From the NCBI GenBank assembly GCA_963830365.1, contig CAWHMU010000036.1:64884-128883 (forward strand): a stretch of 64,000 nt of DNA, written 5' to 3'. Source of the DNA: an uncultured Chlamydiae bacterium. GTDB lineage: Bacteria > Chlamydiota > Chlamydiia > Chlamydiales > Parachlamydiaceae. Positions 36,376 through 58,699 of this stretch are shown in pieces; within the stretch, counting starts at the first letter, position 1; the number at the start of each line of letters is the position of its first letter. Under the pieces are notes generated by a model, which worked only from the letters and a program-made list of their open reading frames with translations, was not told the DNA's origin and did no database searches. The position numbers and the translations under genes are program-made.

Positions 36376-37926
36376 ATGTCGATGAATCTGGTAGATCTAC
36401 ATCTAAACTGGGGTGCATTTACCTCTAAGGGCAAGAAGTATGTCTCCTATAGCCTTGCTAGATCCATTTGGACAAACGGCTCATGCCGGAAAGAAATCGT
36501 ACTTAAATTGGGTAAACTCACTAATGAGGAAGTCGTATTCTGGCGTCAGACGCTGAAAGACGCAAAAAAACGGCGCAAGGCAATTTCTCAGACAGCCCCT
36601 AATCCTTCAGGTGACTCCAGTCCTTCACTTGTCGAAGCTAATAAGTTGACAGCGAATTCTCAGGATCCCGATACTGGAGATCTTCAAATTGCTACGGGGG
36701 ATTTTGAGGGCGAAAACATGTCAGTAAGAAAGAAATTCATCTACGACGAACACGATCAAAATGTCGATATTCACTCTTACGAGGATGCTGTAAAACATGC
36801 TTTTGCGGACGTTCAGGATCCGCGCGTCGCAGATAATCTGCAATATCCATTCTATGGACTTCTGCTAACGATTCTGGCGGGTATTCTTGCAGGCGCAAAG
36901 TCCATCAGTGGTATTTACGAGTATGGAAAGGAAAAAGCTGCCATGTTATGCCCTTTACTTAATCTCGAACGACACCCTTCCTATACCGCCTTTTGGTGGA
37001 TCCTGACGCGAACAAACCCTGAAATCTTGAACCAGGCATTCATTAAATGGATTAAGTTGGTGGCTGACACCTTGGGCGGCACTGAGAAAAAAATCTCTAT
37101 CGACGGGAAAACTCTGAGAGGTGCCAAAAAGGATCTTGTTCATTACGTGAGCGGATACGAGTCTGGAAGTGGGCTTCTGCTTGGTCAAGTGAAAACAGAG
37201 GAAAAATCCAATGAGATCACGGCAATTCCAGAGTTGCTAAAGGTAATCGATGTCAAGGATGCGACGGTCACAATTGATGCGATGGGGTGCCAAAAAGGCA
37301 TTGTAAATGACATCAGGGAGCGCGGAGGGCATTATGTGATTGCCTTAAAAGGAAACCAAGACACTCTACATGCTGAGGCCCAGAATTTTTTTGATCAAGC
37401 CAGAGCAGCTGATTATAAGGGGGCTAAGTGTAAAAAGTATGAAGCGACCAATGAAGGACACGGCAGGCTAGAGAAGCGAGAGGTGACAATCACCAAAAAT
37501 CTCAACTGGCTGGATTGTCGAAGTGATTGGCGGGATCTTAAGATGCTGATAGAAGTGAAATCCACTAGGACGATCAAGGGTAAATCTACAGAAGAACTTC
37601 GCTACTACATTTCCAGCAAGGATATGACTGCGAAGATGGCGAACAGCACTGTTCGCTCACAGTGGGGGATTGAGAATAATCTTCATTGGGTTTTAGATGT
37701 GTTATTCGGTGATGATATCTCCCGGGCCAATACTGGCCATGCAGCGGAGAATCTAGGTCTCTTTAGACGGATGGCCTATTGCATTTTAAAACAGGAAACA
37801 GTGCAAGGACGCGGTTTGGCATCAAAACAACGCAAGGCAATGTGGAATGATCACTATGTGCTTGAACTGTTAAACAAGTTTATCAAGGAAGTGAGCAGCG
37901 GGAGCGAGGTTTACCAGCTCGAGTAG
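36376..37926 (+). CDS. ISAs1-family (H-repeat-associated) DDE transposase
   Basis: ISIDGKTLRG, TIDAMGCQKGIVNDIRERGGHYVIALKGNQ and QWGIENNLHWVLDVLFGDD blocks are typical of ISAs1 transposases. It has an unusually long N-terminal extension (~120 aa). Confidence 0.85.
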   Translation: MSMNLVDLHLNWGAFTSKGKKYVSYSLARSIWTNGSCRKEIVLKLGKLTNEEVVFWRQTLKDAKKRRKAISQTAPNPSGDSSPSLVEANKLTANSQDPDTGDLQIATGDFEGENMSVRKKFIYDEHDQNVDIHSYEDAVKHAFADVQDPRVADNLQYPFYGLLLTILAGILAGAKSISGIYEYGKEKAAMLCPLLNLERHPSYTAFWWILTRTNPEILNQAFIKWIKLVADTLGGTEKKISIDGKTLRGAKKDLVHYVSGYESGSGLLLGQVKTEEKSNEITAIPELLKVIDVKDATVTIDAMGCQKGIVNDIRERGGHYVIALKGNQDTLHAEAQNFFDQARAADYKGAKCKKYEATNEGHGRLEKREVTITKNLNWLDCRSDWRDLKMLIEVKSTRTIKGKSTEELRYYISSKDMTAKMANSTVRSQWGIENNLHWVLDVLFGDDISRANTGHAAENLGLFRRMAYCILKQETVQGRGLASKQRKAMWNDHYVLELLNKFIKEVSSGSEVYQLE

Positions 37927-38250: not shown

Positions 38251-38550
38251 GTGAAAATGAGCCGAACAAGAAAAAAATATCCCCCAGAATTTAAAGTCAA
38301 AGCCGTGCTTGAGATTTTGAAGGGAGAAAAGACTGCAAGTCAATTATCCGGTGAACTGGGAGTGCATCCTATCGTGTTGTCGGAGTGGAAAAAACACTTT
38401 TTATCAACTGCCACAACTGTATTTGAAAAACCGAGCAAGATGACTGGGACAGCACAGGAAGTTAAAGAAAAGGCAGAACTTTTCGAGCAAATCGGACGTC
38501 TTAAAATGGAGGTGGAGTGGCTTAAAAAAAAGTTAGGATGTTTGACTTAA
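38251..38550 (+). CDS. IS3-family transposase OrfA (HTH)
   Basis: KKYPPEFKVKAVLEILKGEKTASQLSGELGVHPIVLSEWKK plus a leucine-zipper-like C-terminus: the classic IS3/IS911 OrfA. Confidence 0.9.
   Translation: MKMSRTRKKYPPEFKVKAVLEILKGEKTASQLSGELGVHPIVLSEWKKHFLSTATTVFEKPSKMTGTAQEVKEKAELFEQIGRLKMEVEWLKKKLGCLT
38526..38532 (+). other. Programmed -1 ribosomal frameshift heptamer A AAA AAG (OrfA to OrfAB)
   Basis: In the orfA frame the codons read ctt aaa aaa aag. orfB is in the -1 frame and overlaps orfA. This motif is the standard IS3-family slippery site. Confidence 0.75.
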
Positions 38551-39380
38551 ATTCTCGACGACTTCTAATAAAGCCAGATCATAAGAAGTTGTCGCTATCA
38601 AGTCAGTGTCATTTGCTTGGAATGTCACGATCTGGGTTGTATTATAAGGCCAAACAGCCCAACGAGGAAGATTTGGCACTCATGCGGGCTATTGATGAAC
38701 AATATCTTCAAACTCCCTTCTATGGAAGAAGACGGATGACGATAGCAATGAGAGCTCAAGGTTTTTTTGTAGGAGGAAAAAGGATTCGAACGGCGATGCA
38801 GACAATGGGTTTAGAAGCAATCTATCCCAAGCCCAATCTGAGTGCGGCAAATAAGGAGCATAAAAAGTTTCCTTACCTACTAAGAGGGATTGTAGTAGAT
38901 AAACCCGATTTGGCATGGGCTGCAGATATCACCTACGTTCCTTTGTTGAAAGGATTTGGATACCTTTTTGCGATCATCGATTGGTTTAGCAGGTATGTGA
39001 TCGAATGGGAACTTTCGAATCTGCTGGATGCGGAATTTTGCATTAATGCATTAGAAAGAGGGCTTTCTCGAGCTAGTCCTGAGATATTCAACACAGACCA
39101 AGGAGTTCAATTCACCTGCTGTCGGTTTGTAGAGAGATTAGAAGCAGGCGGAGTCAGAATCAGTATGGATGGAAAAGGCAGAGCCCTTGATAATGTGTTT
39201 ATTGAAAGGCTCTGGAGAAGCGTGAAGTATGAAGAGATTTATCCAAAAGGGTATGAAAGCTTAAAAGATGTCCGTAATGGACTTAAGAGTTATTTTAAGT
39301 TTTACAACGAGAGCAGGCCACACCAAGGACTGGGTTATAAAACGCCTGCGGAGGTGTATTTTTCTAGGCAGAGCCTTTAG
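38538..39380 (+). CDS. IS3-family transposase OrfB (rve/DDE integrase core)
   Basis: DDE context WAADITYV, IFNTDQGVQF and FIERLWRSVKYEE. Probably expressed as an OrfAB fusion. Confidence 0.9.
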   Translation: MFDLNSRRLLIKPDHKKLSLSSQCHLLGMSRSGLYYKAKQPNEEDLALMRAIDEQYLQTPFYGRRRMTIAMRAQGFFVGGKRIRTAMQTMGLEAIYPKPNLSAANKEHKKFPYLLRGIVVDKPDLAWAADITYVPLLKGFGYLFAIIDWFSRYVIEWELSNLLDAEFCINALERGLSRASPEIFNTDQGVQFTCCRFVERLEAGGVRISMDGKGRALDNVFIERLWRSVKYEEIYPKGYESLKDVRNGLKSYFKFYNESRPHQGLGYKTPAEVYFSRQSL

Positions 39381-41044: not shown

Positions 41045-42371
41045 GGCTCATCGTGCAAATGAGTACCTAACTTTGTGTAAACTATAGAGACGTAATTTAA
41101 AATACTCCATATCTCGAAATCCGTAAGCTTGGCGCTTCATTGTTTTAATCTTGTTATTGATCCCCTCAGTCTTTGCATTGGTGATGGGATGTTTAAAATA
41201 GTTTACCAATCCTTGCCAATGCCTAAGCAGGGTTTTTCCTGCCTTCTCCAGCTCATGTATCCCTGACTCCATAGTATCCATTATCCACCAAGCAAGAAAT
41301 CTAGCCCCCTCTTTCACCGTCTGTTTAGACCAAAATTGACGAATTTGCTCCTTCATTGCATGAGCCAAGGCTATCGGTTGATTTACTTCTAAAAGGCATT
41401 CCAAACTACTTTTTCTCTTAGAATCAAGTTTTTCATAGTTCCTTAAAAGTAAAAATCTCATTCCTTTAATGACTCTTAAGCCAACTTCATTGCATTTTGC
41501 CTGCTGATCTCTCCGGATTTCCTCGATTGCCGTATTCAATAATGCCACGACATGAAATCGATCAAATACTATGTCAACATCCGGTAAATGATTTTGTACA
41601 GCTGATGCATAGGCTGCATTCATGTCCATAGCCATCGCTTTGAGCTGTAAAGCCTTTTCCTTCAACTCTAAGAGGAATGGGATTACGCTTCCCATGCTTT
41701 TACCTTCTACGGCGTGAATGATTTCTCCTGTCTCAAGGTTGATGAAAATCGTCATGTATTCATGCCCTTTTCGAATACTAAACTCATCGATGCCCACGTA
41801 TCGAAGGGATGTAAAATCGAAACTCTTATACTCCCTCTGAAGATATGCTTTATGTATACCCTTCACGAGACTCCAAGAAACCCCAAGGAATTTTGCCACA
41901 TGTTCTATTGTTGCAAACCCCATAAGATTAATGACAAACTTCTCAAAGGAAGTGGTATAACGCTTTCTGGGCTTGACAAAGGGAATCGGGGGCCACCAAA
42001 CGTGTAGGCAATTGACGCATTGAAGACGATGTAGCCGCAGGTTGAGAAAAGCCATTTTGTTCCCTAGAGGGGCCATGCGAAGCCTACGTAACTTCAGTCC
42101 CTTCGATATGGATTCACTGTTCCCACAGCAAGGACAAAGTGTTTTTTTGGGTTGAAGAAGCGCCTCGAAAAGTATTTTGTCTTCATGATATTCACGATTC
42201 AGGACTTGAACATCTTCGATCTGATTGGTATGGTAAAGCAGTGAAGCAGGCATATTAAATCTCCTTTTTTGTCGAAGGATTTAATAAATTGTCTGCTTCT
42301 CTTTTTCAACTAGTTAAACTAGCCCCATTTCTTCGTTCTCCTCGGCTAGGTACTCATTTGCGCGATGAGCC
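41045..42371 (-). mobile_element. ISL3-family insertion sequence (1327 bp) with perfect 8-bp target-site duplication TTATTTAT
   Basis: 24-bp IRs GGCTCATCGTGCAAATGAGTACCT (41045..41068) and AGGTACTCATTTGCGCGATGAGCC (42348..42371). TTATTTAT is present at 41037..41044 and 42372..42379. One transposase ORF ends inside the IR. Confidence 0.92.
41048..42253 (-). CDS. ISL3-family transposase
   Basis: N-terminal zinc-finger (CPCCGN...CVNC), DDE region (YVGIDEFS.., AMDMNAAY.., TNAKTEGINNKIKTMKRQAYGFRD). Confidence 0.9.
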   Translation of the reverse strand: MPASLLYHTNQIEDVQVLNREYHEDKILFEALLQPKKTLCPCCGNSESISKGLKLRRLRMAPLGNKMAFLNLRLHRLQCVNCLHVWWPPIPFVKPRKRYTTSFEKFVINLMGFATIEHVAKFLGVSWSLVKGIHKAYLQREYKSFDFTSLRYVGIDEFSIRKGHEYMTIFINLETGEIIHAVEGKSMGSVIPFLLELKEKALQLKAMAMDMNAAYASAVQNHLPDVDIVFDRFHVVALLNTAIEEIRRDQQAKCNEVGLRVIKGMRFLLLRNYEKLDSKRKSSLECLLEVNQPIALAHAMKEQIRQFWSKQTVKEGARFLAWWIMDTMESGIHELEKAGKTLLRHWQGLVNYFKHPITNAKTEGINNKIKTMKRQAYGFRDMEYFKLRLYSLHKVRYSFAR

Positions 42372-42648: not shown

Positions 42649-43491
42649 CTAAAGGCTCTGCCTAGAAAAATACACCTCCGCAGGCGTTTTATAACCCAGT
42701 CCTTGGTGTGGCCTGCTCTCGTTGTAAAACTTAAAATAACTCTTAAGTCCATTACGGACATCTTTTAAGCTTTCATACCCTTTTGGATAAATCTCTTCAT
42801 ACTTCACGCTTCTCCAGAGCCTTTCAATAAACACATTATCAAGGGCTCTGCCTTTTCCATCCATACTGATTCTGACTCCGCCTGCTTCTAATCTCTCTAC
42901 AAACCGACAGCAGGTGAATTGAACTCCTTGGTCTGTGTTGAATATCTCAGGACTAGCTCGAGAAAGCCCTCTTTCTAATGCATTAATGCAAAATTCCGCA
43001 TCCAGCAGATTCGAAAGTTCCCATTCGATCACATACCTGCTAAACCAATCGATGATCGCAAAAAGGTATCCAAATCCTTTCAACAAAGGAACGTAGGTGA
43101 TATCTGCAGCCCATGCCAAGTCGGGTTTATCTACTACAATCCCTCTTAGTAGGTAAGGAAACTTTTTATGCTCCTTATTTGCCGCACTCAGATTGGGCTT
43201 GGGATAGATTGCTTCTAAACCCATTGTCTGCATCGCCGTTCGAATCCTTTTTCCTCCTACAAAAAAACCTTGAGCTCTCATTGCTATCGTCATCCGTCTT
43301 CTTCCATAGAAGGGAGTTTGAAGATATTGTTCATCAATAGCCCGCATGAGTGCCAAATCTTCCTCGTTGGGCTGTTTGGCCTTATAATACAACCCAGATC
43401 GTGACATTCCAAGCAAATGACACTGACTTGATAGCGACAACTTCTTATGATCTGGCTCTATTAGAAGTCGTCGAGAATTTAAGTCAAACAT
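42649..43491 (-). CDS. IS3-family transposase OrfB (copy 2)
   Basis: Identical to 38538..39380 except for one residue (K11E). Confidence 0.9.
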   Translation of the reverse strand: MFDLNSRRLLIEPDHKKLSLSSQCHLLGMSRSGLYYKAKQPNEEDLALMRAIDEQYLQTPFYGRRRMTIAMRAQGFFVGGKRIRTAMQTMGLEAIYPKPNLSAANKEHKKFPYLLRGIVVDKPDLAWAADITYVPLLKGFGYLFAIIDWFSRYVIEWELSNLLDAEFCINALERGLSRASPEIFNTDQGVQFTCCRFVERLEAGGVRISMDGKGRALDNVFIERLWRSVKYEEIYPKGYESLKDVRNGLKSYFKFYNESRPHQGLGYKTPAEVYFSRQSL

Positions 43492-43778
43492 CCTAACTTT
43501 TTTTTAAGCCACTCCACCTCCATTTTAAGACGTCCGATTTGCTCGAAAAGTTCTGCCTTTTCTTTAACTTCCTGTGCTGTCCCAGTCATCTTGCTCGGTT
43601 TTTCAAATACAGTTGTGGCAGTTGATAAAAAGTGTTTTTTCCACTCCGACAACACGATAGGATGCACTCCCAGTTCACCGGATAATTGACTTGCAGTCTT
43701 TTCTCCCTTCAAAATCTCAAGCACGGCTTTGACTTTAAATTCTGGGGGATATTTTTTTCTTGTTCGGCTCATTTTCAC
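43479..43778 (-). CDS. IS3-family transposase OrfA (copy 2)
   Basis: Translation identical to 38251..38550. The slippery heptamer is at 43497..43503 (minus strand). Confidence 0.9.
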   Translation of the reverse strand: MKMSRTRKKYPPEFKVKAVLEILKGEKTASQLSGELGVHPIVLSEWKKHFLSTATTVFEKPSKMTGTAQEVKEKAELFEQIGRLKMEVEWLKKKLGCLT

Positions 43779-44343: not shown

Positions 44344-45051
44344 TTAATTAAATAAATCGCCATTTAAGGAATTGCTGGAATCAACCTTGTTTTGCCAATC
44401 TTTTTGGTTAATCCATGTACCTGCAAATTTAAGGTAGTCAAAATACGTTAATTCATTTTCTTTCAAGTCGCATGATTCGCACATTGCTGGCAAAGCAGCT
44501 TTAAATGAATTATAACGTTCTAAGATAGCAGTCTCGCCTGGTATTGTTTCCTTGGAGTAATGGTTAAGCCATTTTCTAATAACTCCAATCAATTTTTTTT
44601 TGTTATTCCGATGAAAAGATATATCTTGGCCGGCTATATCAGATAACATTTTCTGATAGCGATATTCTTGTTTATCTAAAATTAAACAATTTTTGTTGTT
44701 TTGCTGACTGTCACCGAATGCTTTTGCTCCAAGAAAGAGACCCAATTCAAGAGGCATATTAAATCGCGGTAAACCTGAATTTTTGCTTAATTCGATTCGA
44801 GATAGATCATGAATCCCAAAGCGACACTCACGGATTATTTGGGTGATTTTTTCAATTCGCACTTGCCCACTGTCATGGACCTCTTTCGAACAGCGAGGGG
44901 CAAAGCCACAATCGATTATTGAAAAAACCATTACATTAAATAATGGTAAATATTTCTTATCGAAAGGGCAATTGATGAAGACCTGATTATCATAGGTCGT
45001 CTCTCCAAATATGGTGGGAAATTTAGCTGCGCCATTTCCGTTTATTATCAT
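44344..45051 (-). CDS. Hypothetical protein with N-terminal TIR-like / nucleoside 2-deoxyribosyltransferase-like (flavodoxin-fold) domain
   Basis: QVFINCPFDKKYLPLF ... ECRFGIHDLSRIE...LPRFNMPLELGLFLGAK follows the pattern (beta1 vF.s.pF; ..aDls....N.N...ElG.a.g) that I recall for TIR-like/NDT-like nucleotide-processing domains. The C-terminal ~100 aa is unassigned. Confidence 0.5.
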   Translation of the reverse strand: MIINGNGAAKFPTIFGETTYDNQVFINCPFDKKYLPLFNVMVFSIIDCGFAPRCSKEVHDSGQVRIEKITQIIRECRFGIHDLSRIELSKNSGLPRFNMPLELGLFLGAKAFGDSQQNNKNCLILDKQEYRYQKMLSDIAGQDISFHRNNKKKLIGVIRKWLNHYSKETIPGETAILERYNSFKAALPAMCESCDLKENELTYFDYLKFAGTWINQKDWQNKVDSSNSLNGDLFN

Positions 45052-45185
45052 TTCTTTTTAGGGTCTGATTTTTTTGCCACAGCGTTTTTGACTGCTTTTT
45101 TGACATCATCTAATCTTAAATTACCTTTGTGGGCTATTGCCTTAGGGATTTTTACAGTCCTTGTTTCTTTTTTCTTTTCGCTCAT
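45048..45185 (-). CDS. Micro-ORF (45 aa, Lys-rich) translationally coupled to the TIR-like gene
   Basis: My own translation: MSEKKKETRTVKIPKAIAHKGNLRLDDVKKAVKNAVAKKSDPKKK. AAGGAA SD 6 nt upstream. Its TGA overlaps the downstream ATG (ATGA at 45048..45051). It is too short to appear in the supplied ORF track. Confidence 0.45.
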   Translation of the reverse strand: MSEKKKETRTVKIPKAIAHKGNLRLDDVKKAVKNAVAKKSDPKKK

Positions 45186-45433: not shown

Positions 45434-45865
45434 TTATGTTGATGAGATTTCTTGCTGGGCTAATGAAAATAGACAGCCACGCAATCTTGCCTTATCGGAA
45501 AGTTTACTGCTGATTGATACAACTCTACCTTTTGAAGGGATTTCAGAGAAATCGATCAAACAATGAGATGGATCATTTACAGGAGTATTTAAAGGATCTT
45601 GTTGAATATGTAGGTCACCGATTTCCCTGATTTCTCCAACAGAAACACCCCATACACCAGAAGATGAAAGCTTTCTTTCTTCAGTATAAAGCCTATAAGC
45701 ATCTTCAGGAGAGGTTTTAGAATCGCGATTGACTGAAAGTTTGTTTTGATCTTTAAGAGTGGGCCTAAAAGCCTGGCTTGTGATTCTCCCTTCCTGAATC
45801 CATGCTGGGTGAACTTGACGTAGGAGGATTTCGTCTTCATCATCAAAAGTAGATTGAGTTGTCAT
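45434..45865 (-). CDS. Hypothetical 143-aa protein (toxin-sized), second gene of a coupled pair
   Basis: ATGA start/stop overlap with the upstream 390-aa ORF. Conserved-looking blocks LLRQVHPAWIQEGRITSQAFRP, LSVNRD and DPSHCLIDF. No motif that I can assign to a named family. Confidence 0.6.
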   Translation of the reverse strand: MTTQSTFDDEDEILLRQVHPAWIQEGRITSQAFRPTLKDQNKLSVNRDSKTSPEDAYRLYTEERKLSSSGVWGVSVGEIREIGDLHIQQDPLNTPVNDPSHCLIDFSEIPSKGRVVSISSKLSDKARLRGCLFSLAQQEISST

Positions 45866-47034
45866 CTTAAACGGGTCTCGAGTAAATCTTTTAGAAAATG
45901 TGATCCTTGTTCTGGAGCTAGAGGGTCATCTAATCGTAATTTTTCCTCTCTTATTTCTTCTCTTTTTGTATGAGTTGCTTGTAAAATAATAGTTTTTGTT
46001 GTGAATTCAAATAAGCAATTGACTTCCCAAAATCCGAATGACCACTCGGCTATAACGCTGTTTTCAGGAGAGGGATAAACAAATGGTGCTGGAATATCTG
46101 CAATTTTGAGCAGTTTTTCAATCCACTCCTTAGTATCACATAAATCCTGACTGTCAAATGCCAACCCCTCACCATCCAACCAGCCATTTTGATATTTCGT
46201 AAACTCATCTATACGTTTATTAGGGTTAGGAAAATAGTTTGGTTCACCGTTTCTAAAAATGGCAATGTGTTGGAGGCGTTCGATTTGAGCTATTGAACCA
46301 TCGGGTTGATATTTTGCGAGTCCAATTAGAGTAACAGATATTTCTTCTTTTTTATATTTTGACGCTAAATCTCTTAGAACAGTATCAAAAGTATCGCTTA
46401 GTGGGCCGATAATACGCTCTCCATCTCCTACCACAAGATTAAAGACACCGCTTTCCACCTCGAATCCAGATATTGCACCACTCAAATAGCAAATATCTTG
46501 ATATGATTTCTTATTTATGGATAGGACCTGGGATCGAATATCTCTTGAATATATTGGTGCATTATTTTTTCCAGGGATTTTCAGAGTAATTGTTTCATCT
46601 TGTTTTAAATGCTGGCCAAAACGACCGAACAAGGGAATAACTTTTTCTGGAAAATCATTAATGCCCACAGAGTTTTGTTTCACTTCATTCTGAAGAAAAA
46701 GGAGTTGTTCATTGATAAGATCTCTCGCTTGATCAAATTCATCATTTATCCAGCTTTCTTGATCATAGCTCCTTTCAAAAACAGGCACTGTACTACCAGA
46801 CTTAATTTCTGCTACTCCAACATTGAATCTAGATTCAAATTTTTTCGGGATTCGCACTTTATTTGGATTGTTTTTGAGATACAACTCTTTTGCAACTGCA
46901 ACAACGATATCTAGATAAGCAGTAAGATCAGGAAGAATCGGATATGCTAAAAAAGGAGTTGGACCATCAAATCTTCCACCTTTCAAAATCTGTTCTAAAA
47001 ATATTTGCTTTTTGGTTGTCATGGAGTAAAACAC
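45862..47034 (-). CDS. Hypothetical 390-aa protein, first gene of a coupled pair downstream of hsdR
   Basis: Long uninterrupted ORF starting 73 nt after the hsdR stop. No P-loop, nuclease or HTH motif recognised. The C-terminal block NGWLDGEGLAF...PAPFVYPSPENSVIAEWSF resembles a widespread uncharacterised W-D-G-x-G ... P-x-x-(D/E)-G-S-I-x-x-E-W module. Confidence 0.6.
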   Translation of the reverse strand: MFYSMTTKKQIFLEQILKGGRFDGPTPFLAYPILPDLTAYLDIVVAVAKELYLKNNPNKVRIPKKFESRFNVGVAEIKSGSTVPVFERSYDQESWINDEFDQARDLINEQLLFLQNEVKQNSVGINDFPEKVIPLFGRFGQHLKQDETITLKIPGKNNAPIYSRDIRSQVLSINKKSYQDICYLSGAISGFEVESGVFNLVVGDGERIIGPLSDTFDTVLRDLASKYKKEEISVTLIGLAKYQPDGSIAQIERLQHIAIFRNGEPNYFPNPNKRIDEFTKYQNGWLDGEGLAFDSQDLCDTKEWIEKLLKIADIPAPFVYPSPENSVIAEWSFGFWEVNCLFEFTTKTIILQATHTKREEIREEKLRLDDPLAPEQGSHFLKDLLETRLR

Positions 47035-47107
47035 GCCTCGTTCTGGGTCTGAACCAGAGTTTTTGTTTATGATAGCCCAATTAATTTAGCAAATCAACTC
47101 AATAAAT

Positions 47108-50100
47108 CTATTTAATAGCCTCAGCTTGTTTGAGAACGGCATCAAGCGTAGTTTCAATAAAATCTTCGGGGTACTCGCGCTTTCGCAAAATTCGCCTGAT
47201 GGCGACCTTCATGCGAGCACGGGCGTTGTCTTTCAAACTCCAGTCGACAGTAATGTTTTGTTCTACAGTAACCAAGAGATCATGGGCGATTGATTTGAGC
47301 TTGTCTATAGTCACATATTGGGAGGCAGGACTAAGTTCGAGAGCTTCAAAGTATGCAAACTCTTCTTCAGTAAGACCTAGTTCAGCGGCACGTGTATGGC
47401 AGCCTCGCATTTGTTTGGCCATTTCGACGAAATATGAGATTGTTTTGGCTGCGTCTATTTGTCTGTCACGGTACTTTTTAATAGCATTTTCCAAAAGCTC
47501 TGTGAATTTGCGTGCTTGTGCTACATTCTTTTTAGAACGTTGTTTAATCTCATCGTTTAGGAGCCGTTTGATCAATTCCAGAGCCAGATTTTTCCTGTCC
47601 ATCTCTTGAACTTCGGCTAGGAATTCGTCGGAAAAAATAGAAATATCAGGTGATTTGAGACCGGCTAAAGCATAAATGTCGATTACTTCTTGAGATGTGA
47701 TAGCCTTTGAGACCAGTTGTTGAATGGCTGTATCGACCGCTTCATCTTTGATTACTTTAAGAATAGTCTTTTCTTTGACAAACTGCGCCTTAACGGTTTG
47801 GAAAAAGCACACGTCGTCAGAAATTTCCCTGGCTTCATCTGTGGCAGCTGCTAATGCAAATGCTTTTGATAGCTCTGAAACTAGCTTGATAAACCTATTT
47901 TTGCCCTCTTCAGTCTTGAGGATATAATCCGTCGCCATTGCAATGGCGGAAAGTCTGTTTTTTGAAATTTTGGACAAATAACCTGAATAGTCTAAACCCT
48001 GGAACATTTCGCGGATGAGCTCGAGTTTTTCCAGTGTGAGAGAGACTGCATCTGCAATCGGAATCCCTGTTTCCCCCTTATCTGAAGGAGAGTATTCAGC
48101 AAGAGCCTTTTTTAGATCCTCTGCAATGCCTAAGTAATCAACAACTAGCCCACCTGGTTTATCGCCAAATACTCGATTAACCCGAGCAATAGCCTGCATT
48201 AGATTATGTCCCTTCATAGGCTTATCGATATACATCGTATGAAGACAGGGGGCATCAAAACCTGTAAGCCACATGTCGCGAACAATTACCAGCTTTAAGG
48301 AATCTTCAGGGTTTTTTAGGCGTTTGGCGATCTCGTCTCGTTGAGATTTACTCCTGATATGGGACTGCCACGCCGTGGGATCAGAGGCAGAGCCGGTCAT
48401 TATCACTTTTAGGATGCCTTCCATGTGATTGTCATTGTGCCAGCTCGGACGTAGCTTGATGATTTGGTTATAGAGATCGACGCATATACGGCGACTCATA
48501 CATACAATCAACGCCTTTCCTTCAATGCGTCTCAAACGTGCTTCGAAGTGTTCAACAATATCTCTCGCAATTTGAGCTAGTCTTTTTTCAGCGCCTACTA
48601 GTACTTCTACACGTGCCCATCGAGTCTTTAGCTTCTTCTTTTGAAGTTCTTCTTCGCCTTCAGTAACCTCTTCAAAGCTTTCATCTAATGCTGGGCGCTC
48701 TTGTTCGTTTAATTCAATTTTTGCTAATCGACTTTCGTAATAAATGGGAACTGTTGCCTTATCTTCGACGGCACGATGAATATCATAGATATCAATGTAG
48801 TCTCCAAAAATAGCTGGTGTATTTTTATCCTGCTGTTCAATAGGAGTGCCAGTAAAACCAATAAATGAAGCTTTTGGCAGCGCATTGCGCATGTTTTTAG
48901 CAAAACCATCAATGAAGTCATATTGAGTGCGATGAGCCTCGTCAGCAATCACCACGATGTTATTTCGATTGGAAAGGGTGGGGTAGGTATCACCTTTTTC
49001 TTCAGGAGAAAACTTCTGAATCGTTGTGAATATGACACCGCCCGATTGACGATTTAAGAGTTGCTGTAGATGATTTCTAGACTCTGCTTGTAAAGGCGTT
49101 TGACGAAACAATGCCTCGCAACGGCAAAAAGTACCGTACAGTTGATCATCTAGATCATTTCGATCGGTTAAAATGACAAGAGTAGGATTTTGCATGGAGG
49201 GGTTTGCGATCAACTTACCGGCATAAAACGCCATTGTCAGGCTTTTACCTGAGCCCTGTGTGTGCCAAACAACACCAGCTCGTCGATCTTTTTCTTTTGC
49301 CGCTAATGTGGACTGAATTGCCTTATTGACTGCAAAATACTGGTGATATCCAGGAATCTTTTTCTCTATCAGAGTTTCTTCTTTATCACCACTTTCAAAT
49401 ACCACAAAATGACGGATTAAATCGAGTAAACGATCTTTAGGAAAAACCCCTTTGATAAGTGTTTCTAATTCTGGGGTGGCTCTTGAAGCTATATTTTCAC
49501 CGTCAACCGATCGCCAGCTCATGAAGCGTTCAAATTTAGTGAAAAGTGCTCCCAATTTTGCCGAATGACCATCCGAAATAATAAGAAGTTCATTGGTTAA
49601 AAATAATGAAGGAATGTCTTTAAAATAGTTTTGGAATTGTTGAAAAGCATCTTTGATGGTGACCGATTCTTCTGAAATAGTTTTGAACTCGAATACCGCT
49701 AGAGGTAAACCATTCAAAAAGACCACCAGATCTGGTCGTCGTTCTCTTTGCCCTTGAATGGTAAATTGATTGACGACCACCCAATCGTTTTGCTGGGGAT
49801 TTTCATAATCGATCAATTTGATTTCTTCGTATGCAATTCCACCTTCTGGATCTGTTTTTTCAATCGATATGCTATTAACTAGATGGCGATGCATTACTTT
49901 ATTGGATGCCAGAAGATCGAGAGAGCCTTCTGATAATAGACGCTTGATTGCTTCTTCAATAATAGGGGGAGAAGCCTTTGGATTAATGCGTTTTAGGGAT
50001 TTTCGCAATCTTTGTTGGAGGATCACTTCGCTGTATGAATTTCGTTCAGCAAATGATTCATCCGGAGCAATATCGGGACCATAGAGGATAGGATAATCTA

Positions 50101-50149
50101 GTTCTCTAAACCAGTCGAGGGCTGCTTGTTCAACTGTTTCTTCGTTCAT
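47108..50149 (-). CDS. hsdR: Type I restriction enzyme, R subunit
   Basis: 1013 aa. N-terminal nuclease-like region, SF2 helicase motifs ([10 protein letters not shown]; [10 protein letters not shown]; GFTGTP; motif [10 protein letters not shown]). Confidence 0.93.
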
Positions 50150-50157
50150 CTACATCC

Positions 50158-51459
50158 TCATATTATTTTTGAAACCAGTTTATCTGCATCCTTGATCCTG
50201 ATTTCGCCACTGATGAGTTTGGGGAGAAGATTATCCCGAATTTCAACGAGTTGTCTATTTTCAAGGATGTTCCCTGAAATTCGTTTAATTAATGAATTGA
50301 CGGTTGAATGGAATAATGAATATACGGAAGAAGTTGGTGAGATAGTATCTAAATCTAATATGTCATTTTTCCTGACTCTTTGATGGCTTCCAGATGTACC
50401 AGTTACAGCCCCGATCATTTTAGTGCGACATGATTCGCTCTTAAGATTCCAATAAAGGAAACTACACATGTTGTTTTGTTTAGGTAAAAAAGCAACAAAT
50501 TCTGTCGAGGAAATTGATCTACCAGGAAAATTGTCAAAGATCTGCCAAACTCTTGGTGTTATTGGATTCAACTTGGAAACAAGAATGGCTCCCGATGGCA
50601 AAATTAGTTTATTGCTTTTTATTGTGCTACCTAATGCTCTTGAAGGCATTTTACCTGAATCAAATGCAGGAATGCTATAAAGATTAAAGCTCTCATCTGG
50701 AAATTTACTTGGATTTATCGTGCTTTCTCCCATGTGTACGATGTCACGAAGTTTTCCAACCTTCCATCCCTTAGGAATTCTACCCAATTCAGAATCCTCA
50801 AAACTGTCAGGGAAAAGGGTAGCTATCTCATCGCTCATGCCATCAGGATTGCGCCCCTCTGATTTGGCTTTCACCGGATCGAAATCGATGAACCAGCTCT
50901 TGAAAATCGTTTGAGTAATCCCCTCAAGCGTTTCATTCATTTTGCGATTAATCTCGATCTTATTGTCAAATGTGCCAAGGATGTGAGCTATAGCTTTTTG
51001 CTCGCATAGAGGTGGTATTCGTAAAGTATATTGACCAAGAACTTGTGCATTTGCACCTGCTTGAGCAGAGCCTGTCTTTGAAGAGGCTACAAAATTCCAC
51101 CAATCTGCCGAACGCATTTGATACCAAACAAAAAACGGATCGGCAATCTTTTGATTAATTCTGAATCGGATTAAGTATGACGCAAATACTGTTGGCTCTG
51201 AGCCCTTATAAATGTAATTTTCTCCAGTGCTATTTCCGGTTCTAGCCACCACAATATCACCATAACTGAGAAGATATTTATCCAACTTGTTTTGAGTGAT
51301 TTCGCAATACGGAACGGATTGCCAATTAACCACACCATTTTGTATATCCGTTATGCGTAAGAATTTCGGACCCACTGGATTAGCATTAGCACTTGCTGTG
51401 AAACCATATGATACATCACACGCTAGATCAGCTAAACGGCGATATTGTTCAGTTGCCAT
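50158..51459 (-). CDS. hsdS: Type I restriction-modification specificity subunit
   Basis: 433 aa with two variable target-recognition halves. Each is followed by the conserved helical spacer (..[23 protein letters not shown].. and ..[18 protein letters not shown]..). Overlaps hsdM by 11 nt. Confidence 0.9.
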
Positions 51460-53044
51460 AACCCAGCACCTCTAGGTTGCGACGGATTATAGTATCAAGA
51501 ACTTTTGCTTCCTCCAGTTGCTGATAAAGCTTAGCTGTTAACTCTTTCATCTTTTCGTCAAAGGGCATACCTTCCTCATCCGATAGCTCGGTGCCAACGT
51601 AACGCCCTGGCGTTAATATATAGCCATGGCTTTGAACTTCTTCAAGTTTGGCGCTTTTGCAAAAGCCTGCAATATCCTTATACCCTTCCATAAATTCACT
51701 ATTTTCAGTCTCGACCTTCTCTCCCCGCCAAGAATGATATGCATCGGTGATTTGACTAACCTCCTCATCTTTGAGACTGCGATGGGTTCTGTCTTCGAGA
51801 AAGCCCAAATTGCGAGCATCTATGAAGAGTATTTCACCTCTACGGTCACGTAGCCGTGTATGCTTGACGATACCGTTGCTTCGATCCTTTGCAAGGAACC
51901 AGAGACATACAGGAATTGGCGTGGTATAAAATAGTTGACCAGGGAGGGCAACCATACAATCGATCATATTTGCTTCAATCAGAGCCTTTCTGATCTCGCC
52001 CTCACCACTTTGATTGGAGGACATGGATCCATTAGCAAGAACAAAACCAGCAAAACCGTTTGGAGACAGGTGATGTACCATGTGTTGTACCCAAGCAAAG
52101 TTGGCATTTCCCGCCGGGGGAACTCCATATTGCCAGCGGCGGTCCTCTTTAAGGCGTTCACCTCCCCAATCACTAATATTAAAGGGGGGATTGGCTAAGA
52201 TGAAATCAGCACGCAAATCCTTATGAAGGTCGTTGTGAAATGTGTCTGCGTAATGGCTGCCGATATGGCTGTCGATGCCGCGGATGGCAAGATTCATCTT
52301 ACAGAGGCGCCACGTCGTAGGATTGCTTTCCTGCCCATAGACAGAGATATCACCTACTCGTCCTCCATGTGCCTCAACAAACTTTTCTGATTGAACAAAC
52401 ATGCCACCTGATCCGCAACAGGGGTCATAGACCCGTCCATGATAAGGTTCGATCATCTCGACCAATAACTTCACTACTGCTTGAGGTGTATAGAACTCGC
52501 CTCCCCCTTTTCCCTCGGAACTAGCAAACCTGCCAAGAAAATATTCGTATACTTTTCCCAAAACATCTTTAGCGCGATGCTCCTTGCTGCCGAGGCCGAT
52601 GCCGGCGATAAGGTCAACTAATTCCCCAAGGCGTTGCTGATCAAGAGAGGGTCGAGAATAATCCTTTGGTAAAACGCCTTTGAGAGAGGGATTTTCTGAT
52701 TCAATCGCTCGCATGGCATCATCAACTAACTGCCCTATTTGGGCTTGCTTGGCATTTTGTTGAATATGGGCCCACCTAGCAACCTTTGGAACCCAAAAGA
52801 CGTTAACAGCTTTGTACTCATCGCGATCTTCGGGATCAGCTCCGGAAGCTGCGTCTTCTAGTAATTTCTGATGGTGTTCCTCGAAAGCGTCTGAAATATA
52901 CTTGAGGAAGATGAGTCCCAGCACGACGTGTTTGTACTCCGAGGGGTCAAGATGACCCCGTAATTTATCTGCTGCAGCCCATAGCTTCTGTTCTAAAGTC
53001 TGAGAATCGGAAGAAGTTTTCTTCCCTGTGCCTTTCTTTGCCAC
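51449..53044 (-). CDS. hsdM: Type I restriction-modification N6-adenine DNA methyltransferase subunit
   Basis: HsdM N-terminal domain ([26 protein letters not shown]), SAM motif [12 protein letters not shown], catalytic ILANPPFN. Confidence 0.93.
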
Positions 53045-53307: not shown

Positions 53308-54174
53308 CTAGAATGTTCCTTGCAGCTTTTTCAAGAGAATAAGATTCTGAAAAATTGATTTTTGCAGTGAGCGCTCATACTTCAGGGTTTTGTCTGCATT
53401 CTCCGTTTGGGGGATTATGCCGAGCATGTAAGTGAGTTTGTTTGATGCGTCATTCTCTAGTTTTTGTTTCGTCAACTTTTGTATTTCTTCTTCGAAACGC
53501 TGATTCTGTTTGGTGTAGATCTCTAGGAGTTTGGCTGATATCCCTTTTGCATCGGTATAGCCGTTTTTTTTCAGAAGGGCTTGCAGCTCGTCAAAACTAA
53601 AGTCGCCAGAATAATACAGTTTTTTACTCTCTTCCGTCGTTAGAGAGCTGAACGACTTGGCGATCCGGTAGAAATCATCGATGATGTCGCTCTCAAAGGC
53701 ATTTCCTTTCCATATGGGTTTATCAAAGGTTACTTCGCCTTTGGCGAGGCATCCAAGATAAGACACATTCCAGGCAAAGAGCTGTTTTTTATGTTGGATC
53801 TCTTCATCGATTTTTTCATTGTTTTGATTCCCATGCGAATAGAATTCTTTAAGTAGTGATTTGACACGATGAGCGATGCTTCCAGTCTCAAACCTGATTG
53901 TGCGACGTAGCCTCCAAAAGTCTACTGCAATTTTTTCAACAAGCAAGCTTTCCATCTGATTACATGGAGATAGGCAGTCGACTAGGTTATTCAAAATTTC
54001 TCGATATTCGTCTTCGTTTTCATGCTCTATGTCGGATTTCAGGATCAGGTCTTTTGTAAAGATACCGTGCTTGATGGCATTTGTCGAAACGATCATCTTT
54101 CCATTTGCAGTCGTTGGACCTGTGGAAAGCAGGGCATTTTGGCAGTTTGATTCAATTTGTTTTTGTGTGGTCAT
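53308..54174 (-). CDS. Hypothetical island protein
   Basis: 288 aa. The N-terminal motif NCQNALLSTGPTTANGKMIVSTNAIKHGIF resembles a recurring N..NA..STGP.T..GK..S..NA.KHG leader seen in many uncharacterised bacterial proteins. The rest is coiled-coil-like. Confidence 0.55.
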   Translation of the reverse strand: MTTQKQIESNCQNALLSTGPTTANGKMIVSTNAIKHGIFTKDLILKSDIEHENEDEYREILNNLVDCLSPCNQMESLLVEKIAVDFWRLRRTIRFETGSIAHRVKSLLKEFYSHGNQNNEKIDEEIQHKKQLFAWNVSYLGCLAKGEVTFDKPIWKGNAFESDIIDDFYRIAKSFSSLTTEESKKLYYSGDFSFDELQALLKKNGYTDAKGISAKLLEIYTKQNQRFEEEIQKLTKQKLENDASNKLTYMLGIIPQTENADKTLKYERSLQKSIFQNLILLKKLQGTF

Positions 54175-54236
54175 TGTTTCCTCCTTTGAATTTCCGATTT
54201 CTGATTTCCCTATAGGATCGGAAATCGGAAAGTTTA

Positions 54237-55952
54237 TTATTCTTTAATAAGTCCCTGGCTTTTAGCCTTTTTCTTCCTTGTCTCAACTTGTGACTTGGTC
54301 AGTCCCGTTTTAATCATGATTTCTTTGATTGTAAGCCCCTCATTAATTGCCTCAGCAACCTCATTCAATTCGATGTCATCATCGGATTCGCCAATTTCCC
54401 ATTCCCATAGTCCATCGCTTTGTTCTTTTAACTGCACTTTAAAAGGGGCGGCGTCACTGCCGGCGAAATGTCTTGTCTTTTCGTAATGGATCTCAAAGCA
54501 AGCTCCTTGCTCTGTGCCATAACCTTGTGGCTGCTTAAGGGTTATCACAACATCGAGAATGTCTTCCCTTTTACTTGTGCCCCGCTGTTGGCCTGTTTTT
54601 CCGGCGTGATGAACAAAGAGAATTGATTTGCCTCGTCTTCGCATATCAAGAGCCCAGTCCTGAACTGGCTGCCAACTTTCGGCCTCGTTCTCGACTCCAG
54701 TGCGAAAAAGGGATGACAAATTATCGACAATAATTAATTCACTATCACCGATAAGTTCTTCTAAAAGGGCTCGTCCTTTTGTTGTAGATAAATCAGGCAA
54801 AGGTCCATCTTGAAGATCAGGAGTAATCAAGCGAAGATAATCTGGTGCAGGAGGTTTCTTGTCTTCAGTGAGAGAAATTCGCCTAAGTCTCTCCTGCATT
54901 GCTGCTGCAGGCATTTCACCGTCAATGTACAATACCTTCCGCGGCTTTTGTGCCTCCCATTTCAAAAAACGACCCCCTACCGCTACCGCATTAGCTATAC
55001 CCAGCGCTACATGCGTTTTCCCAACTCCTCGTTTTGCATATAGAAGACAAAGCCCCTGGCTTGGAAGAAAAGGTGTTAAGATCATTTCCCGCTCAGGTAA
55101 TTCCATCTTCAAAAAATCCTCGACAGTTACCGCCCGGATTTTCGCTTTTGCTCCTTGGGGTATGTAGTCAGGTGTTTTAGCAAGTATTTCTAAAAGTCTG
55201 GTCGAAGTGTTTCCAGAGGCCAACCAATCGCTAATATCCTTCCCATGTGATTCCTGATATTCTAGTCCCGGTAACGTCACAACCCAAAGACGCCTTACTC
55301 TTCCACTAAGCCTTTGGCACAACAGGTCACGTCTTTCAAAACCTGTTTTGTCCATATCGTAGAGAATTACTATGTCGGCATCTTTTAGAAATTCTGTGAA
55401 TTCATCAGGCCAAGAGAGAGAATCGATTGAGGTTGTCGCTGGAAGTCCGCATTCAAGAAGCTTATCAGCATCCTTTTCCCCTTCGACAAGGAAAATTGGC
55501 TTTTTATTGGAAATGGCATTTAAAAGCTCAGGCAATCGGTAGAGGACTTTTCTGCAACCCTTCAGATTTTTGATTGTTTGACCATTCTCAGTATGTTCAC
55601 AAAAGAAATCTTTAGCTTTTCCATTGAATCCAGGTTCAATGCGAACTTTTCTATAAAGCTCTTGTCCTTCCTCATCTTTATAGGAGTAAACAATACGCTT
55701 TGTTTCTCGGCGCTCATTTTTTGGTGTGCCAAATAGTTCGGCTACCTCTATGTTTAACGATCTGCAAATATCTTCGACAGAACATCCTGAGAAACATTTT
55801 AATAGAATTTTGCCGTCAGCAGCTTCGCCTACTGAAAAACTTGGACTCTCATCATCATGAGCAGGGCAGCAGGTCATATACCCGTGACTCGTTTTCTTGA
55901 GGTCTTTCCCTGTTTTTGATTTCAGAGTTTCAATAAACTCATTTAATTTCAT
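54237..55952 (-). CDS. Bifunctional primase / RecA-like (RepA/AAA_25) replication protein, P4-alpha-like, with C-terminal HTH
   Basis: CHC2-type zinc motif CCPAHDDESPSFSV...C..C, TOPRIM FLVEGEKDADKL..DMD, Walker A AKRGVGKTHV, Walker B LIIVDNL. Confidence 0.85.
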   Translation of the reverse strand: MKLNEFIETLKSKTGKDLKKTSHGYMTCCPAHDDESPSFSVGEAADGKILLKCFSGCSVEDICRSLNIEVAELFGTPKNERRETKRIVYSYKDEEGQELYRKVRIEPGFNGKAKDFFCEHTENGQTIKNLKGCRKVLYRLPELLNAISNKKPIFLVEGEKDADKLLECGLPATTSIDSLSWPDEFTEFLKDADIVILYDMDKTGFERRDLLCQRLSGRVRRLWVVTLPGLEYQESHGKDISDWLASGNTSTRLLEILAKTPDYIPQGAKAKIRAVTVEDFLKMELPEREMILTPFLPSQGLCLLYAKRGVGKTHVALGIANAVAVGGRFLKWEAQKPRKVLYIDGEMPAAAMQERLRRISLTEDKKPPAPDYLRLITPDLQDGPLPDLSTTKGRALLEELIGDSELIIVDNLSSLFRTGVENEAESWQPVQDWALDMRRRGKSILFVHHAGKTGQQRGTSKREDILDVVITLKQPQGYGTEQGACFEIHYEKTRHFAGSDAAPFKVQLKEQSDGLWEWEIGESDDDIELNEVAEAINEGLTIKEIMIKTGLTKSQVETRKKKAKSQGLIKE

Positions 55953-55965
55953 TGAAGTCCCTTTA

Positions 55966-56172
55966 TTAATCTTTAGAAGCTTGGCTTTCGATCCAATCGT
56001 CGAATAGATCTTTTCTTAGATAAAGGCGTTTGCCTATTTTGCGGATGGCGACTTCAAGGCCATTTTTGTGACGCATGATCAAATAATGACGCATTTGACC
56101 AAGGGAGAATGGATAGCTGCTCGATTCGGAGATTTGTTTGATACTTAAATATTGATAATCACTCATAGGCAC
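55966..56172 (-). CDS. AlpA/excisionase-family small DNA-binding protein
   Basis: 68 aa. YLSIKQISESS...LRKDLFDDWIES matches the MerR-like excisionase HTH layout. It sits between the primase and the integrase module. Confidence 0.65.
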   Translation of the reverse strand: MPMSDYQYLSIKQISESSSYPFSLGQMRHYLIMRHKNGLEVAIRKIGKRLYLRKDLFDDWIESQASKD

Positions 56173-56288
56173 ACCCTCGAATTGATTTGTTAGAGTTTGC
56201 GCCTAATGGTATTGAATGAAGCTGATTATCCTCTCACACTATGAGTGACACTTTTGTTTTTATAACGAAAACGACTGATTATTAATGG

Positions 56289-57413
56289 TTAATGTGTTAT
56301 TTGTGGCTGATATCGATGATCGAATTCAACTGGTTGAGAAAGGAAGGTTTTAAAAGTAATTTCACCTTGTGTTTGGTAAAAGTCGAGTTTTTGTATGGTA
56401 CGCCTTAAAACTCGATATAAGCTCTCGTCGGTACTTTGAAAAATTCTAGACCTTGGTTGTGCACCTGGAATTTCAGAAAGAGCTTTTAAAAAGTTCCATA
56501 TTGTTTCTGAACACGGCACAGGTAGCCAATCGAATATGGTCGGAAGAGAAAGTGAAGGAAGGTTCTTATCAGAGGGGTTCTCTAAAGCCTTTATAGGAAG
56601 GTTGAAAAGGTCATTCAAAGCTATGGGAAGCCGAAGACGGGAGCTCGTCAGGCATATCCAGCACATTCCAAGGGTTTCGGCTGCTCCCAATTTGGCATTT
56701 TGCCTACCGCATATTACTGTATTAACTAGTTCACGGATAATATCAGCTGCATTCATAATATAGATTGGAAAAACAGTTGGTGGAATTTTCCGGGCAATCT
56801 GTCCACAAGGAACCTCTTGGAATTCTGAAGTTAATGTTCCTGTTTTTACTTCTTTCAAAGTGGTGATTCTTCGAATTTCCATGTCTTCCGGGAAAATCAG
56901 TTCCAAAAATGCGATTTGTCTTTTGGAGATCGACTGGCGGAGGTGATTCAGAAAGCCGCTCAAGGCGCGTTCCCAAAAAAAGAGAAGCTTCTCTTTGTTT
57001 TCTACAATGTCTCGCAACCTGATGATATAATCGTACAGTGTTTCTCCTTTGTTAGGCTCCTCAAGATGATAATCAGCAAAGTCCACAGGATTAAGAAAAT
57101 ACTCGATATATTCGCTGTCAGGGGTAGCATTCTTTTCAATGTCCGTTTGCCAGTTACTATAGTGTGTAGAAGCCAAGCTTCTAGATGCTTCCGATTGATA
57201 GGGAATCTTAGGTAAAGGTGCCATCAAAACCGTTCCGATATCATCGGTGCCATAGATCCAACACCGAGCTAGTTCCTTTCGCCAGTTATCTTCCGATACA
57301 GGAGAAAAATCAGGATTAAGAGCCCGTGTGGTATCATAAAAGTGTTGTTTCTTTTCTAGGTCTGATTGGAATTGAAGTAAGATTCTTGTTAATCCATCAA
57401 GGTTGTATTTCAT
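56289..57413 (-). CDS. Hypothetical protein overlapping the integrase 3' end by 17 nt
   Basis: 374-aa ORF directly downstream of int. No recognisable catalytic motif. Confidence 0.5.
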   Translation of the reverse strand: MKYNLDGLTRILLQFQSDLEKKQHFYDTTRALNPDFSPVSEDNWRKELARCWIYGTDDIGTVLMAPLPKIPYQSEASRSLASTHYSNWQTDIEKNATPDSEYIEYFLNPVDFADYHLEEPNKGETLYDYIIRLRDIVENKEKLLFFWERALSGFLNHLRQSISKRQIAFLELIFPEDMEIRRITTLKEVKTGTLTSEFQEVPCGQIARKIPPTVFPIYIMNAADIIRELVNTVICGRQNAKLGAAETLGMCWICLTSSRLRLPIALNDLFNLPIKALENPSDKNLPSLSLPTIFDWLPVPCSETIWNFLKALSEIPGAQPRSRIFQSTDESLYRVLRRTIQKLDFYQTQGEITFKTFLSQPVEFDHRYQPQITH

Positions 57414-58623: not shown

Positions 58624-58672
58624 GATTGCCTAAAACAGGAATCGAACCCGCGACCTGCGCGTTACGAATGCG
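58624..58672 (-). repeat. Proximal att-type direct repeat (within and just 3' of tRNA-Thr)
   Basis: Partner of 44012..44060 (48/49 identical). Confidence 0.9.
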
Positions 58673-58699
58673 CTGCTCTACCAACTGAGCTATTTAGGC
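58627..58699 (-). tRNA. tRNA-Thr (anticodon CGU)
   Basis: The minus strand reads GCCTAAATAGCTCAGTTGGTAGAGCAGCGCATTCGTAACGCGCAGGTCGCGGGTTCGATTCCTGTTTTAGGCA. It has a 7-bp acceptor, D arm GCTC/GAGC, anticodon loop TTCGTAA and T arm GCGGG-TTCGATT-CCTGT. It closely resembles E. coli thrW as I remember it. CCA is not encoded. Confidence 0.9.

Follow-up and report, generated by a model that had tools for sequence, protein, structure and literature searches.

The anticodon nuclease PrrC is encoded inside the type I restriction-modification (R-M) operon EcoprrI, where it backs up restriction with an abortive second line of defence. It is one protein, made up of an ABC-ATPase N-domain and a C-terminal anticodon nuclease domain, and is held latent by the R-M complex. 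RonA, the effector of Ronin, is a 61-residue membrane peptide that is neutralised by HsdMS and is always hsd-linked, usually without hsdR (Silas et al., bioRxiv 10.1101/2023.04.06.535777). In 2024, a catalogue of 145 untested phage defence candidates (PDCs) was derived by guilt-by-embedding in BREX, DISARM and type I R-M loci (Payne et al., bioRxiv 10.1101/2024.01.29.577857). Multi-gene candidate no. 32, PDC-M32, appears there in Table S8 as cassette CAS_00128 (FAM_01821>>FAM_00608), and that entry carries no domain annotation and no mechanism. A later study picked 8 PDC/HEC candidates at random and found that 4 gave E. coli protection against phage; PDC-M32 was not among the 8 (bioRxiv 10.1101/2024.09.26.614923). 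Here we describe a PDC-M32 gene pair from an uncultured Chlamydiae bacterium (Parachlamydiaceae). It lies in a stretch of 64,000 nucleotides (assembly GCA_963830365.1, contig CAWHMU010000036.1, positions 64,884 to 128,883), called the window below, and all coordinates of the pair follow window numbering. The upstream gene is referred to as A (PDC-M32A) and the downstream gene as B (PDC-M32B). We propose, with a probability of about 0.5, that A-B is a self-contained toxin-antitoxin (TA)-like abortive-infection or defence cassette that often rides in R-M operons.

The pair and its junctions are laid out as follows:
45862..47022, minus strand: gene A (PDC-M32A), 386 amino acids from ATG 47022, according to the public gene call and homologue alignment.
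45862..47034, minus strand: longest open reading frame (ORF) of gene A, 390 amino acids from GTG 47034, from the ORF list.
45434..45865, minus strand: gene B (PDC-M32B), 143 amino acids with an ATG start, from the ORF list.
45862..45865, minus strand: ATGA stop/start overlap of A and B; the plus strand reads TCAT, and the TGA stop of A is at 45862-45864.
47023..47107, minus strand: hsdR-A spacer of 85 nucleotides, with one weak sigma-70-like match and an imperfect hairpin.

Protein A matches the PADLOC PDC-M32A model PDLC04575 (E 2.4e-64), its residues 9-381 aligning to positions 3-367 of the 375 in the profile, and three further PDC-M32A models match it as well. Protein B matches the PDC-M32B model PDLC04579 (E 6.7e-40), with residues 10-134 aligned to positions 3-121 of the 123 in that profile. 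A and B lie next to each other on one strand in the order A>>B, as PDC-M32 is defined. By profile match, A-B is thus a member of this catalogued candidate system and not a newly discovered family. Full-length profile matches and many homologues also indicate that A and B are real genes rather than chance ORFs. An earlier note, written from the letters of this DNA, had read the pair as a novel defence or TA-like system. A candidate defence or TA-like coupled pair, often tied to R-M, is what we find too; the novelty did not stand, with the family already listed in PADLOC. The entry in Table S8 shares gene order, strand and adjacency with our pair, and it was through its association with type I R-M that the candidate came to be defined. 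That definition came from embedded genes, whereas the window pair is appended after hsdR and does not lie between hsd genes. What is new here is the obligate pairing, the conservation asymmetry, a short A'-B form, coupled hsdM-A-B-hsdS operons and persistence after R-M decay; the short form and the persistence are not described in the catalogue's entry for PDC-M32.

Both ORFs lie on the minus strand, as do hsdM, hsdS and hsdR, and the ATGA overlap is where the earlier note had placed it. The note had started A at GTG 47034, and the gap of 73 nucleotides from the hsdR stop and the length of 390 residues are correct for that codon. However, ATG 47022 is favoured by public gene calls and homologue alignment, which shortens A to 386 residues and widens the gap to 85 nucleotides. 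The overlap is predicted to couple the translation of A and B. In the spacer, promoter-like and terminator-like site counts were not above shuffled expectation, and no convincing terminator was found. Judging from the sequence, it is possible that A-B is co-transcribed with hsdR.

The plasmid copies of the pair are labelled "hypothetical protein" in RefSeq. Neither protein has a match in Pfam or NCBIfam, in agreement with the earlier statement that no nameable motif is present. Pfam at E<=1 over 62 A and 57 B family members gave no consistent family; DUF7636 weakly matches 6 of the 62 A members. Searches of PHROGs with A and B matched only PHROGs 30544 and 31579, of unknown function. PDB sequence and profile searches with both proteins returned nothing except a spurious 25-residue match to a retroviral capsid. 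An assignment of A-B to the HEPN systems was rejected on membership testing.

Homologue searches recovered 58 homologues of B and 62 of A. B was found in the genomes of at least 140 species, which belong to many phyla, among them Myxococcota, Planctomycetota, Pseudomonadota, Actinomycetota, Chloroflexota, Acidobacteriota, Verrucomicrobiota and Cyanobacteria. When clusters at 50% identity (1.84 billion representatives) were searched, the B family amounted to 1,593 clusters at E<=1e-3, and the best 150 of these are all small proteins of 100-223 residues. Viral copies are rare: tblastn found no match in 50,697 phage genomes, and 9 of 2.9 million IMG/VR contigs match. A phage origin of A-B was rejected on these counts. 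The pair occurs on 5 plasmids in total. On one of them, Limnohabitans plasmid pTEGF4 (L085, NZ_AP027057.1 7454-21807), A-B lies within a dense type II TA cluster annotated as three RelE/ParE toxins, one VapBC pair and a CopG antitoxin. Neighbours of other copies include integrases, a type IV restriction endonuclease, AbiE, DRT, DrmA, JetD and type III R-M.

A lies directly upstream of B on the same strand in 81 of 82 B loci, and the single exception is cut by a contig end. A metagenome scan with a narrower A alignment (A5) approached the question from the other side: B lies directly downstream of A in 19 of the 20 loci retrieved, and the remaining locus ends 44 nucleotides after A. The pairing is therefore obligate in all testable loci, 81/81 searched with B and 19/19 searched with A. 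Most homologous loci have a 4-nucleotide ATGA/GTGA junction between A and B, so the adjacency and overlap that the earlier note had pointed out recur in other genomes. The partners are not equally conserved. In 78/78 loci B is the better conserved of the two, with a median identity to the window proteins of 41% for B and 26% for A.

In these respects A-B resembles type II TA systems with large antitoxins, such as Xre-RES/MbcTA, DarTG and AbiE. They have an upstream neutraliser, a role that A may play, a small downstream enzyme, as B may be, and a stop/start overlap. As in type II TA systems, A-B is an obligate, adjacent and coupled pair found on mobile elements, and the downstream partner, here the putative toxin, is the more conserved one. 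The differences are that A-B has no sequence or fold relation to RES, ART, DarT, DarG or AbiE, that we detected no DNA-binding domain in the window's A, and that the toxin role of B is a prediction.

Not every copy has a full-length A. At about 16 genome loci and several metagenome or viral loci, B is preceded by a short A' of 140-220 residues. The short A' matches only positions of about 250-370 of the A profile, and profile positions 1 to about 250 are missing. PADLOC's own PDC-M32A models, matched at positions of about 250-373, confirm that it is the C-terminal domain only. Only the C-terminal domain of A, therefore, constantly accompanies B. The short pairs adjoin unrelated housekeeping genes, for example GSDH, radical SAM and aquaporin genes. 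In one short form, from a Planctomyces metagenome-assembled genome (MAG; L016, 9501..9986), the N-terminus matches PF01954 (AF2212-like) with an above-cutoff score of 23.5 bits. This match lies ahead of the conserved C-terminal domain, and other short forms do not have it. We take AF2212-like to be a predicted antitoxin family.

Obligate pairing is also what would be expected of a purely selfish addiction module, a TA pair that stabilises an island, a plasmid or an R-M operon with no anti-phage role. The five plasmids, the location within the TA cluster of pTEGF4 and the minimal forms in housekeeping contexts are consistent with such a module, as is the fact, described below, that the pair outlasts the decay of neighbouring R-M genes. 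We nevertheless consider this explanation unlikely. The pair has been inserted repeatedly, and with exact coupling, between hsdM and hsdS in different phyla; this and the defence neighbours fit the pattern of validated defence systems. The long A has about 260 extra conserved residues that a simple antitoxin does not need. In addition, addiction and defence can coexist.

Type I hsd genes were found within <=10 kb of the pair in 25/79 genome loci, and about two thirds of the genome loci have no hsd or other R-M gene in their flanks. In about 15 loci, the pair is part of an hsdM-A-B-hsdS(-hsdR) arrangement on one strand. The hsdM/A, A/B and B/hsdS junctions are all 4-nucleotide ATGA/GTGA overlaps in Cyanobium, Thiohalocapsa, Ectothiorhodospira, Phycisphaerales and others. 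A rule that every R-M-embedded copy has a long A was tried and is broken by L071, in which a short A' lies among hsd genes. In an Acidobacteria MAG (L097, 82..9632), A-B follows a type III-like res gene (ResIII, 1021 residues) and a mod gene (N6_N4_Mtase, 933 residues). A UvrD-family helicase gene comes after A-B in this locus, and B, at 7098..7478, was missed by the public gene call.

The closest clade to the window is informative on what happens when the R-M operon is lost. In this clade, in which A is 53-57% identical to ours, the orthologous hsd operon has decayed, and A-B is intact just downstream. In L120 (7356..7951) and L121, residues 13-75 of HsdM abut residues 898-1010 of HsdR, roughly its last 115. 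In L122 (181..966), residues 753-1013 of HsdR, roughly the last 260, remain and contain an in-frame stop. The remnants of L120 and L121 thus have different end points from that of L122, and A-B is intact in all three. It follows that the hsdR-A-B junction is ancestral for the clade and that the pair outlives R-M. This suggests that A-B works without the Hsd proteins.

These loci bear directly on the possibility that A-B is a guard of R-M, similar to PrrC in EcoprrI or to Ronin, in which the Hsd complex is monitored by A-B or holds it latent, and A-B fires once restriction is shut down by a phage anti-restriction protein such as Ocr, ArdA or Stp. The hsd genes near 25/79 loci, the about 15 hsdM-A-B-hsdS(-hsdR) operons, the 4-nucleotide overlaps at all three of their junctions and the type III res-mod genes directly upstream of the pair in L097 would all fit a guard. 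There are precedents in PrrC and in RonA, which is sequestered by HsdMS (bioRxiv 10.1101/2023.04.06.535777). The remaining loci, about two thirds of the total, do not have a flanking hsd gene, however, and the short forms sit among housekeeping genes. A further objection comes from the window's own clade, in which R-M is deleted or pseudogenised and A-B is intact, because a neutralisation that depended on Hsd would make the loss of R-M lethal. A-B also has no similarity to PrrC or RonA. Taken together, we regard a guard of this kind as rather improbable.

The two precedents can be compared with A-B in further ways. Like PrrC, A-B is physically tied to hsd genes, but A and B form an obligate pair of their own and persist without them. 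PrrC lies inside the hsd operon; the window's pair follows hsdR, about 15 of its relatives lie between hsdM and hsdS, and most relatives have no hsd genes nearby. The latency of PrrC needs its cognate Hsd proteins; this does not appear to be so for A-B, given the genomes of L120, L121 and L122. Searches of Pfam, NCBIfam and PADLOC (E<=1) with A and B gave no P-loop, ABC or PrrC match. With no ABC-ATPase/PrrC match and the pair intact beside decayed hsd operons, a PrrC-type system was rejected. Ronin shares with A-B a small effector linked to hsdM/hsdS, and a programmed-cell-death logic has been proposed for it (bioRxiv 10.1101/2023.04.06.535777). In contrast to RonA, B is a globular protein of 125-143 residues with a partner of its own, and most copies have no hsd neighbours. 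Ronin was rejected as an identity for A-B: B is a globular protein of 143 residues, hsdR is present in the window, and most homologues are not hsd-linked.

A third alternative is that A-B has a non-toxic accessory function. It might regulate or modulate R-M, for example in restriction alleviation or as an assembly or specificity factor, or it might consist of an enzyme that modifies nucleic acids or nucleotides and of an adaptor for that enzyme. The stoichiometric-looking coupling with hsdM and hsdS and the weak OB-like similarity found in A (see below) could be explained in this way; B is not basic, and its toxicity is an inference. We find this alternative very unlikely. Most copies have no R-M nearby and the pair survives R-M loss, and neither Pfam, NCBIfam nor PADLOC linked it to known R-M accessory proteins or to C-proteins. 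A patchy spread on mobile elements, in at least 140 species of many phyla, is typical of defence or TA cargo.

B gave a confident AlphaFold2 model (predicted local distance difference test, pLDDT, 92.9) of a globular alpha/beta protein, with a core of about 125 residues. R16, Q17, F33, P35, D39, S44, S68, G70 and H101 are near-invariant in 198 B sequences, and H19 is present in 85%. An alignment of 57 B sequences has conserved residues that include R16, Q17, H19, S30, F33, P35, D39, S44 and H101. The sequence blocks that had been quoted earlier as conserved-looking coincide with conserved residues of the B and A alignments. The invariant residues of B are polar and, judged from the alignment, catalytic-looking. 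The earlier comparison of B to ART/RES-like toxins was not borne out. A RES, ART or DarT identity was rejected, with no such Pfam match in the 57 members (E<=1) and no ART-fold match by Foldseek (PDB, BFVD). Foldseek against PDB and BFVD gave no match to B at E<=0.001, and the sub-threshold matches were KH-like only, with a template modelling (TM) score of about 0.25. We speculate that a pocket of R, S, H and D in a protein that is not basic might suit metal-independent phosphoryl or nucleotidyl transfer, or a small-molecule substrate.

The AlphaFold2 model of A is confident as well (pLDDT 91.4), and Foldseek against PDB gave no match at E<=0.001. Three regions can be distinguished:
46618..47022, minus strand: N-terminal domain of A, residues about 1-135; beta-hairpin, long helix, beta pair and helix in the AlphaFold2 model.
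46231..46617, minus strand: middle region of A, residues about 136-264; mostly beta, with AlphaFold2 strands at 174-264.
45865..46230, minus strand: C-terminal domain of A, residues about 265-386; helix, five strands and helix.

In the N-terminal domain, G15, R17 and F18 are invariant. This domain and the middle region are both missing from the short A' forms. The middle region is weakly OB-like, with sub-threshold Foldseek matches to IF1, cold-shock proteins and eIF5A (probability up to 0.9, E>=0.02), and may be a sensor or ligand-binding module. The C-terminal domain carries GWxDGxG ... PxP ... EW, with G280, W281, D283, G284, G286, P313, P317, E326 and W327 conserved. The earlier note had singled out a W-D-G-x-G ... 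P-x-P ... E-W block as one known from many uncharacterised proteins, and this can now be refined: the block marks the sole part of A that always accompanies B. Invariant positions of A are mostly G, F, W and P. The domain is acidic, with an isoelectric point (pI) of 4.76 here and a family median of 4.36. It probably binds or neutralises B. A search for DNA-binding domains of the helix-turn-helix, ribbon-helix-helix or AbrB type found none in the window's A and none in 62 A family members.

In the cassette that we propose, B would be a compact effector or toxin enzyme with the pocket-like set R16, Q17, H19, D39, S44, S68 and H101. It would be kept inactive through binding by A's acidic C-terminal domain (residues of about 265-386), and the ATGA overlap would allow the two proteins to be made in a fixed ratio. 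In the long form, the N-terminal roughly 260 residues of A, including the possibly OB-like beta region, would be an added input or sensor module. Upon infection, this module would release or activate B, and the cell carrying the pair would be expected to show an anti-phage phenotype. Inside or behind an R-M operon, the cassette would form a second layer of defence for which the Hsd proteins are not needed. In favour of the proposal we count the full-length matches to PDC-M32, the obligate pairing, the asymmetric conservation, the modularity of A with its acidic C-terminal domain, the intact pair beside decayed hsd operons, the TA and defence neighbours, and, as a base rate, the 4 protective systems among 8 PDC/HEC candidates.

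Several observations weigh against this proposal. B has no fold or sequence link to any known toxin. Many nucleic-acid-targeting toxins are basic, and B is not, with a family median pI of 6.4. Classical type II antitoxins usually have a DNA-binding domain; none was recognised in the window's A, which with its 386 residues would also be a very big antitoxin. In many phyla, the full coupling of the hsdM-A-B-hsdS operons suggests a tighter functional integration with R-M than simple hitch-hiking. Finally, we found no experiment on PDC-M32 in the literature, and the one other paper that names it does so to annotate a Sinorhizobium prophage.

A more far-reaching version combines three claims: that B is an undescribed fold and class of toxin enzyme, that the acidic GWxDGxG...PxP...EW region of A is a new antitoxin or immunity domain, and that the N-terminal extension of roughly 260 residues in the long A is a sensor by which the toxin is coupled to the failure of restriction. 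The trigger could be, for example, anti-restriction proteins or phage nucleic acid, and hsdM-A-B-hsdS would be an integrated "restrict, then abort" unit across phyla. We offer this combination only tentatively and hold it to be doubtful as a whole.

In the window, A-B is carried on a horizontally acquired island. Its other main features are as follows:
51449..53044, minus strand: hsdM, an ORF with HsdM_N/N6_Mtase on the identical public contig (Pfam).
50158..51459, minus strand: hsdS, an ORF with Methylase_S (Pfam).
47108..50149, minus strand: hsdR, an ORF with HSDR_N/ResIII/T1RH-like_C (Pfam).
58626..58700, minus strand: tRNA-Thr(CGU), found with ARAGORN, at the island boundary.
57397..58476, minus strand: tyrosine integrase (Phage_integrase, E 1e-28), at the island boundary.

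The type I R-M operon hsdM-hsdS-hsdR (47108..53044, minus strand) is intact and lies directly upstream of A-B. The order on the island is tRNA-Thr, integrase, a primase/AAA_25 gene, hsdMSR, A-B and then insertion sequence (IS) elements. GC content is 0.38-0.44 on the island and 0.46-0.57 in the flanks, and the drop spans about 36-58 kb. The tRNA-island location that had been proposed earlier is thus matched by the tRNA-Thr gene, the integrase and the low GC. Between the integrase and hsdM (53308..57413, minus strand) are three genes. One, at 54237..55952, encodes a 571-residue CHC2 zinc-finger/AAA_25 primase-helicase-like protein with a weak PADLOC match to "RTasDnaG-like"; the other two, of 288 and 374 residues, have no Pfam or PADLOC match. 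This segment resembles a replication module such as integrative elements carry.

B is directly followed by another pair of overlapping ORFs (44344..45185, minus strand), of 45 and 235 residues, again with an ATGA overlap. The 45-residue ORF (45048..45185) is lysine-rich, and its stop overlaps the start of the 235-residue ORF (44344..45051). The 235-residue protein is weakly TIR-like (PF10137 CAP12/Pycsar TIR, E 0.0025, below the family cutoff; PADLOC TIR effector, E 0.017), and no homologue of it was found in any other A-B locus analysed. It could be an additional island-borne defence gene. At the distal island end, two near-identical two-ORF elements of 99 and 280 residues lie in inverted orientation (38251..39380, plus strand, and 42649..43778, minus strand). 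Their 280-residue ORFs differ by one residue, and they are IS3-family-like by ORF layout alone. They enclose an ISL3 transposase (41048..42253), a 209-residue ORF and a 180-residue ORF in a composite-transposon-like arrangement. An additional DDE_Tnp_1 transposase is at 36376..37926. A guess at a cyanobacterial host was rejected: the count of the HIP1 motif GCGATCGC was 0.

The family is known to users of PADLOC, and both of its proteins stand without a matched fold or family in Pfam, NCBIfam, PDB or Foldseek searches. If A-B were merely an addiction module, the finding would be ordinary. Our analysis defines a minimal unit, residues of about 265-386 of A together with B, and points to R16, S44 and H101 as candidate key residues. 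Should B prove to be a toxin of new fold, and the C-terminal domain of A its neutraliser, the two would make up a new effector/immunity pair for the TA and defence repertoire. The coupled hsdM-A-B-hsdS operons, if this holds, would represent a widespread natural combination of restriction with a backup suicide layer, alongside PrrC and Ronin.

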